Counted from the stretch's first letter, positions 21,231-24,443 are shown. The stretch is DNA of 26,736 nucleotides from Candidatus Babeliales bacterium (GCA_044451405.1 JBIOKB010000013.1:1-26736); one strand, 5' to 3'. The notes: generated by a model from the letters alone, not told the origin. Translations and numbers: made by a program.

Positions 21231-24200
21231 TTATTCCGTGTAAAACACTACAAGAGTGATCAGAATGAACAGCCCCAACTGTACCGGCCAGAAAAAAACG
21301 CGGTAGAAGGCAAAAAAGCGGGAGAAATAGGGGGTAAGCCTACTCTTATATAACTTGAGCATGGCGTAAAGCACGAACATAATAAATGCAAGATAGAGCA
21401 TGAAAAAGAGATACTCAATATATAACAGCTGTCCACTTCCTTCATGCTGACGTCTGAAGTTCCCATGGAGAACAATCGCGGTAAATATTAAACCACTATA
21501 AGCCGTTAGTGCGGTGAGCGTGCTTATTTTTTCATCCCGTTCCCAGATAGAAAATACGGTATACAGAGAGAAGAAAATAATAAGAATGGGAAGCATAAAT
21601 AAGATAAAATCGTACCATAAATCACGTGCTAAGATCATGTTATAGGAGAGCCATAGTCGATTGCTTACATCCTCGTATGCTTTAAGTCCCATGGTTGTAT
21701 CAGACACATCCGTTTCAAATGAAAAGAAGGTTTCTTTAATGATATATCCCGGTATGAGTACATCTTGATACAGCCCCGGTAATTTTGTTGGTTGAATGTT
21801 GTAATAATCATCAAATGAAGGGATTAACATGATATTTTTACTAAAATCAGGATGTTCTACGGCTATGGTAACATCTTGAACATCAAGCGGATATTTTGAG
21901 AAATCAAATTGTTGTGCCATTTTCGTGTTAAATTGCCACCCTATAACAAGGAAGTCACCTTCTACCATTTCGTAAGTCTTATGTATATTAACAAAGCCTA
22001 TTGCTTGAGGAAATTGTGGTTCTTTTACAAGATTTTTATCAATATCTTTTGGATATTTTTCCCATACATAACCAGATATTAGTAATGCCGAATCAGCAGT
22101 GATATCAGCGGTGTAAATTTGGATACCAAACGGGATATCAATGGTTTTGTTTTCATGAATTTCCTCTGCATATAAATCGCGTACCCGTAAAATACTTTGC
22201 AAATGCATATCATCAACAATGAGCTGATTACGTGGCGGTACCAACACCGGAGTAATACGGATGATAAAAAATAATATGCCTAGTATCGTGAATAATAATA
22301 TTGACAGCGTATATGCATAATCATGAGCTTGTGAAAACCAGATAGGGCCAATAATCCAGAGTGTTATTAACAAAATAAGGAGGAAACAGAGTAAAATGAG
22401 CATGTAATAGTGACGTAATTCGATAGGAGAAAGTTGCACTTCATCAGCAGAGAACATTAAACCAAGAGCCCATTTGGAGATAGGTTCTATTTCAAAATAG
22501 GCCCACATAGATTCTTGTGTGGTATTATTTTCATAGGAAAAATAACCATGATCACCCGCTAACACTTTTTTTCCGATTTCATACAATTTCTTACTCGAAA
22601 TTTCTTGGGCCATATCAAAAATAGTTTTTTGTTCAACTACATAATCATGACTTGTTTGGTATATGAACGTACCAACATCTGAAAGTAAGCAGGAATAGCC
22701 GGGGGTTACCCCATCAAGTTGGAATACACCATCTTGAATGAATTTCACATCAAAGCTTATACATACTATACCAATTGGTTTTTCATGCTTGGTGTCTGCT
22801 GGATCATAAAAAGGGATAGAGTATCCAGCAATGTAAAGGTCTTCCAGAACATCCTTATACGGATTGAACCATAGCATTTTATTTTGCTTGAGCGGTTCGT
22901 TATACCATGCCCAGGTTTCAGCAATAGAACCAATAACCTCTGTTGATTGGGTGGTGTAATCAAAACTTTTTTCTAACTGTTTTGTTTCAATAGTGCCATT
23001 TTTATGACGAATAACCAAAGGTGCATACAGGCGCGTATCTTTGCTGTATGCGTAGGGCTCATAGGCAATTTGAATTTCATACAGCAAGTGGTGTTCTTTC
23101 ATATCGCGGTTTAGGCGTTTGATAATGTCTTCTTTTGGTAACAAGCCGGTATTTAAATCAGTTGCTATAGATTCACCGATTAATTGCAATGCATTGAGCG
23201 AGTGAGTGAGATTTTTAAGTGTATTATGTACGGCATGGCTAATTTCACTTTTTCTTCTTTTTAATTCAACATGAGAGGCGATTTTAAGTGCTATAAGAGT
23301 GCCGATTAACAAGCCCACTGATAGGATAAGAACACCAATTTTAATACTAAAGCGTATATTTTTATTACGCATTCCTGAGCGTATGATTTCCCATGCACGA
23401 ATAAACCATCCATACATATAACCAGCTACCATAAAACAGATGCATGAAAGATAACCAAAAAGAACTGCCAGCAGGTGTAAGTACCATAACGAACCATCAA
23501 CCTCAGCAAGATCAATTTTTGCTACAATACCCCAATCTGTTTTAGGGACGTACTGCCATGCAGCCAGCGTTTTGTGATGATGACGATCTAATTTAATACC
23601 TTCGCCTTCATGGCCCAATGCAGCTTTAAGCATAGGAACTTGCACTTGATCATGGGCACCCTCAAAAGGGAAAAAGAGTTTAAATGGTTTTGTGTTATCA
23701 AAGCGTGTTTTGCTAATATAAATAACCCCATCATGAATTTGTTTTCCTATAATAACTTCGCCTGTTTTTCCCAAATCAATATAGTTTTGTATAATCGTAT
23801 AAATTTTGGGAGTCTGAATTTCTTGCGCAAGAATGCCGATCATAACGTTATTTTTAAATATGGGTATGCAGACAAAAAATGCAAGACGTTTAAGTACTGG
23901 ATCATAATCAAATTCTGATACATCAGGAGTGAACGTCATGAGTATGCGTGATGCAGCTTCAGCCAGCGGATAATGTGGGTATCCCTTATCAACAAAGAGG
24001 TTGACGCCAATATATGATTGGGCAAAATCTGAATAAACTACTCTGCCATCAGGAGCGATTAAAATACTGTTTCTAAACGTATCGGGCGTGCTTTTTTCTT
24101 CAAGAAATGAATTGACATCATCTATAAAAGATTTTGTTTCAGGAGCTGCTAACTGCACAGCGCTTAAAGGAGTTAGTTTTTCTGACGCTTCAATTATTTT

Positions 24201-24443
24201 TGCATGCTGAGCGCGTTCTATGCCAATGCTCATGATACTTTGGATGTAGTTACGTATTTGTAGCGTACGCTCATCAATGGTGTCTGCAAGTTGTTTGGTA
24301 ACCTTTTCATGAACTACGGTTTTTGCATGAAAATACCAGAACGTTGTTCCAGCACAGAGGAGTATGCTCGCTATGAGTGCATATGCACAATACAGATTAC
24401 GTGATGTCGGTGGGCGTTGCTTTAGGGTGTTGGTTGTGTCCAT
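21231..24443 (-). CDS. Tandem dCache domain-fused pentameric ligand-gated ion channel (Pro-loop receptor)
   Basis: TM-dCache-TM-TM-dCache-TM-TM, then pLGIC hallmarks: IPFGIQIY…ISGYVW (beta1-2), FDFSKYPLDVQDVTI (Pro-loop), pre-M1 Arg (ILARD), M1 Pro (MLPIL), M3 LLYIEYLF and M4 RVFFWP. Start at ATG 24443 (TGGGG SD) or 24455. Confidence 0.85.
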   Translation of the reverse strand: MDTTNTLKQRPPTSRNLYCAYALIASILLCAGTTFWYFHAKTVVHEKVTKQLADTIDERTLQIRNYIQSIMSIGIERAQHAKIIEASEKLTPLSAVQLAAPETKSFIDDVNSFLEEKSTPDTFRNSILIAPDGRVVYSDFAQSYIGVNLFVDKGYPHYPLAEAASRILMTFTPDVSEFDYDPVLKRLAFFVCIPIFKNNVMIGILAQEIQTPKIYTIIQNYIDLGKTGEVIIGKQIHDGVIYISKTRFDNTKPFKLFFPFEGAHDQVQVPMLKAALGHEGEGIKLDRHHHKTLAAWQYVPKTDWGIVAKIDLAEVDGSLWYLHLLAVLFGYLSCICFMVAGYMYGWFIRAWEIIRSGMRNKNIRFSIKIGVLILSVGLLIGTLIALKIASHVELKRRKSEISHAVHNTLKNLTHSLNALQLIGESIATDLNTGLLPKEDIIKRLNRDMKEHHLLYEIQIAYEPYAYSKDTRLYAPLVIRHKNGTIETKQLEKSFDYTTQSTEVIGSIAETWAWYNEPLKQNKMLWFNPYKDVLEDLYIAGYSIPFYDPADTKHEKPIGIVCISFDVKFIQDGVFQLDGVTPGYSCLLSDVGTFIYQTSHDYVVEQKTIFDMAQEISSKKLYEIGKKVLAGDHGYFSYENNTTQESMWAYFEIEPISKWALGLMFSADEVQLSPIELRHYYMLILLCFLLILLITLWIIGPIWFSQAHDYAYTLSILLFTILGILFFIIRITPVLVPPRNQLIVDDMHLQSILRVRDLYAEEIHENKTIDIPFGIQIYTADITADSALLISGYVWEKYPKDIDKNLVKEPQFPQAIGFVNIHKTYEMVEGDFLVIGWQFNTKMAQQFDFSKYPLDVQDVTIAVEHPDFSKNIMLIPSFDDYYNIQPTKLPGLYQDVLIPGYIIKETFFSFETDVSDTTMGLKAYEDVSNRLWLSYNMILARDLWYDFILFMLPILIIFFSLYTVFSIWERDEKISTLTALTAYSGLIFTAIVLHGNFRRQHEGSGQLLYIEYLFFMLYLAFIMFVLYAMLKLYKSRLTPYFSRFFAFYRVFFWPVQLGLFILITLVVFYTE

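Follow-up and report, generated by a model that had tools for sequence, protein, structure and literature searches.

A 26,736-nt stretch of DNA from a Candidatus Babeliales bacterium (GCA_044451405.1, JBIOKB010000013.1:1-26736; the whole stretch is called the window, and positions are counted from its first letter) carries a gene pair that looks like a two-gene sensory module serving one chemical-sensing channel. The downstream gene encodes a protein with nine membrane helices, two different Cache-type sensor domains (Cache-1 and Cache-2) and a C-terminal region of 340 residues that, by predicted fold and profile-level homology, is a complete, divergent pLGIC (pentameric ligand-gated ion channel) subunit. 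The upstream gene encodes a periplasmic binding protein related to UrtA and AmiC, and in relatives its presence follows that of Cache-1. We lean towards a scheme in which the binding protein, tethered to the membrane, signals to Cache-1 that it has bound a small amide or urea-like ligand, whereupon the pair of Cache domains gates the pore.

The channel open reading frame (ORF) extends over 21231..24455 on the minus strand and encodes 1074 amino acids (aa) as listed (P0001). Its translation probably starts at the fifth residue, Met5 (24443), since in a 38-row alignment this Met shares an invariant column with the first Met of each of the 37 homologues, and since the database copy (P0002) is 1070 aa long. 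The initial annotation of this DNA already placed the end of the gene at Met5, and the P0001 numbering used here equals its numbering plus four. Its overall observation holds for the ORF, the helices, the three domain folds and the sequence strings that it quoted, which are found at aa 302-319 (YVPKTDWGIVAKIDLAEV), 515-535 (WAWY...WFNPYKD) and 1002-1009 (RQHEGSGQ). Its interpretation stands in part: the layout, the folds and the shared face of the soluble domains are supported, and the binding-protein partner encoded upstream had been overlooked.

The channel core belongs to a large family. An exhaustive HMMER search with aa 735-1074 returns 1268 cluster representatives (50% identity) at E<=0.001 and 1110 at <=1e-10, and the architecture counts given below cover 150 listed representatives out of the 1268. 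Single-sequence searches of the channel protein speak against a channel assignment. Pfam finds only Cache-type matches and no Neur_chan_LBD or Neur_chan_memb, NCBIfam gives no match, and phmmer against the PDB yields weak Cache matches only and no pLGIC. A search for PF02931 across the bacterium's own genome also found nothing, in a run whose controls were silent too and which is therefore uninformative. The pLGIC membership thus rests on profile-level evidence. A profile built from the window protein's C-terminal part and the 23 listed representatives shorter than 520 aa (24 sequences) matches GLIC (4il9_A, E 5.6e-7) from the Pro-loop YPFD through M4, at profile positions 137-368, with other GLIC chains weaker among the rows listed. 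The AlphaFold2 model of the C-terminal part has a predicted local distance difference test score (pLDDT) of 85.2 and a predicted template modelling score (pTM) of 0.79. Its top Foldseek match is GLIC 6f0j_A (E 1.3e-13, TM-scores 0.66/0.72, 331 columns), followed by GABA-A receptors. The VIA structure search aligns aa 767-1072 with GLIC 6hja_A (Z 19.8, root-mean-square deviation (rmsd) 2.9, 280 aligned), GluCl (Z 19.1), DeCLIC 6v4a_A (Z 18.2, rmsd 3.5, 278 aligned) and ELIC (Z 17.8).

The Pro-loop, the Arg before M1 and the Pro within M1 are hallmarks of pLGICs. All three are present: P856 of the Pro-loop is invariant and D858 nearly invariant in 38 sequences, where the loop aligns with the GLIC YPFD, and both the pre-M1 R944 and the M1 residue P956 are kept in 139 of 151 aligned members. 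Some of these hallmarks are described in the accessible part of PMC549065. Four further residues, His997 (kept in 136 of the 151), Arg1001 (145), Tyr1012 and Glu1014 (147), are specific to this family and are spread over the end of M2, the M2-M3 loop and the beginning of M3. In pLGICs this region couples the extracellular domain to the pore, and the four residues are candidates for a part in gating coupling.

The M2-M3 loop RQHEGSGQ lacks a Pro, and no selectivity signature of the GEK or PAR type precedes M2. The initial annotation had singled out both features; both are real, and neither is special to this protein, being family-wide (the loop Pro occurs in 29 of 151 members). The M1-M2 loop, WERDEKIS, carries charges of both signs, and neither its sequence nor its length is constant among the 151 members. 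Two other features make conduction and selectivity uncertain: no charged ring is kept ahead of M2 in the 151 members, and position 9' is Ser987 rather than the usual Leu or Ile, according to a hidden Markov model (HMM) alignment to GLIC whose register in a membrane helix is unreliable. The missing selectivity signature, the variable M1-M2 loop, the unusual 9' and a sequence that has diverged beyond the reach of Pfam would all suit a pLGIC-like part that has lost conduction, with the Cache and binding-protein sensors using it as a conformational transducer or a pentameric scaffold. This is very improbable in view of the strong retention of the gating elements R944, P956, H997, R1001 and E1014, the superposition of the full four-helix domain on both open and closed channel structures, and the lack of a cytoplasmic output domain through which a non-conducting receptor could signal.

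Kyte-Doolittle hydropathy and the AlphaFold2 model together give nine membrane helices, at aa 21-42, 324-347, 370-394, 677-706, 710-734, 946-973 (M1), 979-1003 (M2), 1014-1036 (M3) and 1041-1072 (M4), each within a few residues of the ranges first proposed for a nine-helix protein. The hydropathy peaks, with a 19-residue window, are at 21-42, 321-349, 366-398, 677-711, 712-742, 941-972, 977-996, 1008-1037 and 1047-1074; one more, at 191-210, corresponds in the model to a beta-strand of a Cache domain. The full-length model, made with 38 sequences of the double-Cache form (pLDDT 85.9, pTM 0.73), has the order transmembrane helix 1 (TM1), dCache, TM hairpin, dCache, TM hairpin and complete pLGIC subunit. 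TM1 and a long stalk form one helix (H18-82), the two-module sensor 1 extends to aa 322, TM3 and the second stalk form one helix (H365-436), the likewise two-module sensor 2 extends to aa 673, and the beta-sandwich of the channel occupies aa 744-944.

Cache-1 is separated from Cache-2 by exactly two helices, and Cache-2 from the extracellular domain of the channel by another two. These three soluble domains are therefore on one face of the membrane, whatever the absolute orientation, and the claim that they share a face is borne out by this spacing. dCache domains and pLGIC extracellular domains are located outside the cytoplasm. From these locations, the basic N-terminus, the basic TM2-TM3 loop (aa 348-369, with five Lys or Arg and one Asp or Glu) and the distribution of positive charge, we infer a cytoplasmic N-terminus and three periplasmic domains. 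Lys and Arg make up 0.18 per residue of the proposed cytoplasmic segments vs 0.11 of the proposed periplasmic flanks in the 38 double-form sequences. Two things count against the orientation: the positive-inside signal has only moderate strength, and TM3 is followed by four basic residues on what would be the outer side.

Cache-1 has its nearest structural neighbors among sensor-kinase ectodomains. The VIA search with aa 44-325 finds 9rc2_A (Z 18.7, rmsd 3.9, 244 aligned), DctB 3by9_B (Z 18.5), 3lif_B (Z 17.2) and KinD 4jgo_A (Z 16.7). In Pfam the domain has a weak Cache_3-Cache_2 match at aa 201-325 (20.2 bits vs a cut-off of 27.7), and its orthologue in the related locus L002 reaches dCache_1 at 52.1 bits (cut-off 45) over its aa 66-228. 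The Cache-1 profile also matches a sensor-kinase protein (P0005). Cache-2 consists of a long stalk helix and two stacked PDC modules, judging from the secondary structure of the model. Its best VIA match (aa 395-682) is 3li8_A (Z 25.0, rmsd 2.2, 249 of 263 aligned), with PctD 7prq_A at Z 23.7. Pfam assigns it to MCP-like_PDC_1 (47.1 bits, cut-off 27), with dCache_1 at 36.8 bits, under the cut-off of 45; the orthologue in the related locus L001 reaches dCache_1 at 58.3 bits.

The two Cache domains had been described as different, and their profiles agree with that, matching each other at a probability of 94.5% (E 8.2e-8) with 15% identity over 134 columns. A recent duplication of one Cache is ruled out by this distance and by the match of Cache-1 to the sensor kinase P0005. 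The amino-acid-binding motif of dCache domains (dCache_1AA) comprises Y121, R126, W128, Y129, Y144 and D173 in PctA numbering, according to the accessible text of PMC8915833. Cache-2 fails this motif. The residues in the motif region are S510, W515, W517, Y518 and Y533, with Trp515 at the Arg position, and the position of the Asp falls on Ser567 in an alignment with 9hvj_A (GIIGMD vs GIVCIS), if D173 is correctly placed on that strand. The motif Arg and final Asp are thus missing under this mapping, as the initial annotation had suspected, and the Trp-Tyr pair is kept.

Among the 150 listed representatives, 35 have Cache-1, Cache-2 and the channel, 86 have a Cache-2-type sensor and the channel (about 700 aa), 7 have a partial N-terminal region, and 22 have <=140 residues ahead of the channel and are either stand-alone forms or gene fragments. 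The survey of double-Cache forms that had been suggested therefore shows that the architecture is not unique to the window. Chance, fusion and assembly artefact are ruled out as its origin, given this recurrence and the full-length, mostly uninterrupted frames in dozens of genomes. Within the listed channels the Cache-1 profile matches long forms only. In 34 of the 35 double forms and in 79 of the 86 single forms, the 95 aa ahead of the channel domain contain two hydrophobic peaks, so that the link by a transmembrane hairpin is a trait of the family.

The single-Cache form with seven transmembrane helices is common and widespread, occurring in the cyanobacteria Crocosphaera sp. and Phormidium, the methanogenic archaeon Methanococcus maripaludis, a Firmicutes metagenome-assembled genome (MAG) and an Omnitrophota MAG. 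Its source names are 'cache domain-containing protein', 'Cache 3/Cache 2 fusion domain-containing protein' and 'hypothetical protein'. One double form, P0062, is named from Candidatus Dependentiae bacterium. Genomes with a match at E<=1e-10 number 79 of 261 in the bacterium's own phylum and 51 of 79 in its own family, and the listed genomes are all of 0.7-2.4 Mb. A separate search with a 9-row alignment, made with a single peptide pattern, gave two related loci and is not a census.

A FastTree phylogeny of 151 channel-domain rows, rooted at the midpoint and with local support values only, has a split with support 99. All 36 double forms fall on one side of it, where they are joined by 18 unclassified rows and 2 forms that appear to be single; the other side holds 73 single forms and 22 unclassified rows. 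The unclassified rows include 11 that look single and were set aside because they lack the N-terminal helix or start with a remnant of Cache-1. The double or single label changes 3 times on the tree vs a mean of 30.6 in shuffles, and 7 times without the 11-row exclusion. This pattern suggests that one clade gained a second, different Cache domain, with Cache-1 acquired and Cache-2 ancestral. The two apparent single forms inside the double-form clade, P0033 and P0067, do not fit this simple history.

Three other features of the family are of note. The related locus L038 has tandem single-Cache channel genes (3559-5706(+) and 5743-7908(+)), and heteromeric channels are possible there. P0111 (1501 aa) and P0119 (1566 aa) are single-Cache channels with about 800 further C-terminal residues of unrecognised nature. 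Some relatives have in-frame stops in their channel matches (one TAG in G248, three stops in G181 and three in G200), which may reflect lineage decay or sequencing errors. In the ESM Atlas, the nearest clusters to the channel are annotated 'hypothetical protein' and have 312-359 aa; in one cluster of lower rank, 11% of the members carry Neur_chan_LBD, which is a lead only.

The binding-protein gene ends within the start of the channel gene, with an overlap of 22 nt counted from Met5 or 34 nt counted from Met1. Its product belongs to Peripla_BP_5 (Pfam E 9.1e-137), and its PDB matches are 8tg1_A (E 1.1e-107), UrtA structures (1.8e-85 to 5.7e-88, the latter for 7s6e_A) and AmiC 1pea_A (6.5e-52). 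Against the NCBIfam UrtA model TIGR03407 it scores 414.6 bits, under the cut-off of 492.75. In each of 29 other double-form loci (29 of 29), tblastn places an orthologue with 39-50% identity directly upstream of the channel gene and in the same orientation. In 4 of them only the 3' end of the gene is visible, where the fetched stretch ends; Pfam confirms the Peripla_BP_5 gene in two of the 29, L001 and L002. All four of the more divergent double-form loci carry the gene as well, giving 33 of 33. The corresponding count near single-Cache channels is 0 of 11 loci, with about 3 kb or more covered on each side where the contig allowed. Loci were chosen by channel architecture and not by neighbor. 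All counted loci come from one phylum and mostly from one family and are not independent, which lessens the weight of these counts.

The Peripla_BP_5 gene and the channel gene are each present once in the bacterium's own genome, which is 95.68% complete. No Urt-type permease or urtBCDE gene is seen in this genome or in the window, an absence that an incomplete genome does not prove. The sole BPD_transp_2 match in the genome lies in an ABC uptake operon on the small contig C72 (G000; L004 1-2772) that encodes a TrpX-like binding protein, a permease and an ATPase. In all 28 orthologues of the window binding protein that were examined, the N-terminus opens with basic residues, continues with about 20 hydrophobic ones and reaches the first strand of the fold after a linker of roughly 8-12 residues. 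These N-termini read as an uncleaved signal anchor that would hold the protein at the outer face of the inner membrane. Lipoprotein anchoring was considered and is judged unlikely from the same N-termini.

Because the binding-protein gene tracks Cache-1 only, no transporter is seen for it and its product appears tethered beside the receptor, we read the binding protein as a subunit that docks on Cache-1. Gating through the peripheral Cache domains, as the initial annotation proposed, is a reasonable idea. The Cache domains, and perhaps the extracellular domain of the channel, could instead bind their own ligands and gate directly, with the binding protein merely co-expressed, for nutrient concentration or scavenging or for an unseen transporter, and making no contact with the channel. 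dCache domains often bind ligands, the structural neighbors include ligand-bound PctD, McpU, Tlp3 and DctB, and the single-Cache relatives have no binding-protein gene nearby. Accessory domains have also been proposed to concentrate ligand for the channel's own site (accessible part of PMC549065). We consider direct ligand binding rather unlikely, since the binding-protein gene strictly tracks Cache-1 (33/33 vs 0/11), the gene ends overlap, no Urt permease is seen in the own genome, the linker of the tether is very short, and the pocket diversification described below suits a sensor better than a housekeeping uptake protein.

The very short linker would keep the binding protein near the membrane-proximal Cache modules and the peripheral helices, and it is conceivable that the protein is a true subunit with another docking site, on the channel extracellular domain, on Cache-2 or, through its anchor, on TM1-TM5, leaving Cache-1 with a different role. 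Single forms have Cache-2, the hairpin and the channel, yet none of the 11 loci has a nearby binding-protein gene, and Cache-1 with TM1-TM2 is the sole part of the receptor that tracks the binding protein. Docking away from Cache-1 is quite unlikely for these reasons. A prediction of the complex of Cache-1 (aa 43-322), Cache-2 (aa 395-683) and the binding protein gave a score that one control came too near, and it counts neither way.

The binding-protein genes of some loci differ in number or integrity. L049 has three tandem copies upstream of a double-form channel (6895-10301(-)), and L032 has one copy on each side of the channel (245-1426(-) and 4572-5828(-)); several binding proteins may feed one channel. 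In L002 the gene is split into two ORFs (3771-4328(+) and 4351-5031(+)), perhaps by decay or by a sequencing error. In the window, a promoter-like TTGACA-18-TAGTAT lies at 25775-25746(-), a type of site whose number in this region does not exceed the shuffled expectation. Since it ends 5 nt before the listed ATG, the true start of the binding protein is perhaps Met15 (25699), at the beginning of the hydrophobic anchor. Four of the 11 single-Cache loci have a different gene adjoining the channel gene (Table 1). It encodes a protein of 690-755 aa with a weak Cache-1-like or dCache_1 domain, in one case a weak HAMP match, and no channel domain. This protein could be a separate partner in the role of the fused Cache-1.

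The urea pocket of Prochlorococcus UrtA comprises W120, S122, Y141, Q144, E146, Y190, F192, N246 and S274, and the W120A mutant loses urea binding (accessible part of PMC10392092). Eight of these nine residues, including all four that form hydrogen bonds, are identical in the window binding protein. Two observations tell against urea: Trp120 is Leu129 in the window protein, and of 29 channel-linked binding proteins only 16 retain Q144, 11 retain Y190 and 5 retain N246, counted over pocket columns that may be partly misaligned, one of them with 6 gaps. Urea as the ligand is therefore far from certain. The pocket seems to have diversified between lineages.

In the scheme that we favor, the binding protein would capture a small polar ligand, which for the window copy may be urea or a similar small amide. 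The closed binding protein would then dock on Cache-1, much as certain histidine kinases are docked by binding proteins at their tandem-PAS/PDC sensors. With two helices flanking each of them, Cache-1 and Cache-2 may form a covalent pseudo-dimer resembling the two halves of a dimeric dCache sensor. A displacement of TM4 and TM5 would pull on the N-terminal helix of the channel extracellular domain (H749-765) and shift the equilibrium between closed and open states of the putative pentamer. The output would be an ion flux or a change in membrane potential. A fuller version is tentative and less likely than not: a three-tier ionotropic chemoreceptor in which a membrane-tethered binding protein with a diversified pocket passes its occupancy state to the acquired Cache-1, Cache-1 acts as a pseudo-dimer with the ancestral Cache-2, and the four flanking helices and TM5 surround the pLGIC core, converting ligand into ion flux.

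LuxP-LuxQ and TorT-TorS are the nearest precedents for such docking, and in these systems a periplasmic binding protein docks on the helix-flanked periplasmic tandem-PAS/PDC sensor of a two-component kinase and so signals the presence of its ligand. The likeness extends to Cache-1, whose nearest folds are the sensor-kinase ectodomains DctB, KinD and DvhD. The output differs, being a cytoplasmic kinase in those systems and a putative pLGIC pore in the same polypeptide here, where docking is a prediction. GLIC, the proton-gated channel of Gloeobacter, is the best profile and structural match of the core and shares the YPFD-type Pro-loop motif, the pre-M1 Arg and the M1 Pro. It has about 16% identity to the window protein, carries Glu19' and an M2-M3 Pro where the family has His997 and Arg1001, and is without accessory domains. 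UrtA (8HIC, 7S6E/F) and AmiC resemble the window binding protein in their strong E-values and, for UrtA, in the pocket. The window protein differs from UrtA in its score below the NCBIfam cut-off, an apparent membrane anchor instead of a cleaved signal peptide, the lack of visible urtBCDE genes, its coupling to a channel and the change of Trp120 to Leu.

DeCLIC (6v4a) is also a prokaryotic pLGIC with an extra periplasmic N-terminal domain, which is thought to modulate gating (accessible parts of PMC12664993 and PMC9897478). As described there, this domain has two beta-rich lobes joined directly to the extracellular domain, with no extra helices, Cache or partner. A 2025 paper (PMC12664993, in its accessible part) calls DeCLIC the only pLGIC whose N-terminal domain is partly characterised. 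The alpha2-delta subunit of animal voltage-gated calcium channels has two dCache_1 domains and modulates its channel from outside, and according to the accessible text of PMC8915833 it is a separate subunit of an unrelated channel family and has the amino-acid motif. In the window protein the domains are fused to a pLGIC, and Cache-2 is without the Arg and Asp.

Fusions of Cache domains to ligand-gated ion channels (LGICs) have been known since 2004, when Tasneem, Iyer, Jakobsson and Aravind described MCP-N + Cache + ART-LGIC proteins in Methanosarcina, Cytophaga and Microbulbifer (accessible part of PMC549065). Like the window protein, these have a Cache-type sensor N-terminal to a Cys-loop-type channel core. 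The same text reports that bacterial LGIC genes can share operons with genes for binding proteins (PBP-II) and that LGICs are also found fused to PBP-I. It places the extra domains between the signal peptide and the ligand-binding domain, is not experimental, and in its accessible part mentions no transmembrane hairpins, second Cache or Peripla_BP_5/UrtA partner. The fusion of Cache to channel is thus of a kind predicted twenty years ago, and the double Cache and the UrtA-like partner are not among the features mentioned in that part of PMC549065. Searches of the open literature found nothing on a pLGIC with dCache, a Dependentiae channel with Cache or a pLGIC in an operon with a binding protein, and nothing relevant on 8TG1.

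GLIC and ELIC serve as structural models for neurotransmitter receptors, and the accessory N-terminal domains of prokaryotic pLGICs are almost unstudied. The present family adds a large set of channels (the 1268 clusters above) that are named 'cache domain-containing' or 'hypothetical' where they are named. Its sensors are joined to the channel by a transmembrane hairpin and not by a soluble linker, which implies a gating route through the membrane. In the double-Cache clade the channel genes lie directly behind the gene for a tethered UrtA-like binding protein in every locus examined. If the favored scheme is right, the pair would be a bacterial counterpart of animal channels that use domains of binding-protein fold as sensors, and a compact system for learning how a pLGIC is gated by peripheral domains. 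The scheme may also account for the retention of a 4.5-kb sensory module in genomes of about 1 Mb. In the fuller, three-tier version, this would be the first pLGIC gated via a separate binding-protein subunit and membrane-embedded accessory helices, and bacteria with reduced genomes and a small set of signalling proteins would be able to sense a metabolite, which may come from a host, quickly and without transcription.

Table 1. Features of the channel and binding-protein genes in the window, and genes next to single-Cache channels in related loci
Feature	Residues (aa)	Position	Strand	Basis or remark
Putative membrane-anchored periplasmic binding protein, UrtA/AmiC type	439 as listed	24422..25741	-	stop codon 24422-24424
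Channel gene from Met5 (probable start)	1070 + stop	21231..24443	-	
Channel-gene stop codon		21231-21233	-	
TM1, with short basic N-terminus ahead	21-42	24330..24395	-	hydropathy, model helix H18-82, Lys + Arg counts
Cache-1, tandem-PDC/dCache of DctB/KinD/DvhD type	43-322	23490..24329	-	VIA structure search
TM2-TM3 hairpin, basic loop, proposed cytoplasmic	324-394	23274..23486	-	hydropathy, model
Cache-2, dCache_1 type, same type as the sensor of single-Cache relatives	395-676	22428..23273	-	Pfam, VIA, HMM census
TM4-TM5 hairpin, very short turn, proposed cytoplasmic; joins Cache-2 to the channel extracellular domain	677-734	22254..22427	-	hydropathy, model
pLGIC extracellular beta-sandwich; Pro-loop YPLD at 855-858, pre-M1 Arg944	735-944	21624..22253	-	profile, Foldseek, VIA
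pLGIC transmembrane domain, M1-M4	945-1074	21234..21623	-	profile, models, structure searches
Gene adjoining single-Cache channel		L039 5547-7622	-	
Gene adjoining single-Cache channel		L040 1292-3364	+	
Gene adjoining single-Cache channel		L044 5642-7714	-	
Gene adjoining single-Cache channel		L045 3113-5380	+	

The next ORF downstream of the channel gene, also on the minus strand, encodes 513 aa (19448-20989(-)); neither Pfam nor NCBIfam assigns it to a family, and tblastn gives no match for it in the fetched related loci. By eye it has hydrophobic stretches in its middle and acidic ends rich in Thr and Pro. Further along, 17542-18207(+) and 18249-19076(+) are adjacent paralogues of the 'possible lysine decarboxylase'/SLOG (LOG-like) type, which match Lysine_decarbox in Pfam (E 5.5e-25 and 2.7e-22) as well as LDcluster4. 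On the other side of the gene pair, a divergent ORF at 25858-26736(+) runs off the window; it appears by eye to be a hydrophobic protein with multiple helices and has no Pfam family. A homologue with 37% identity is encoded in L002 (12358-13170), about 4 kb downstream of the channel gene.

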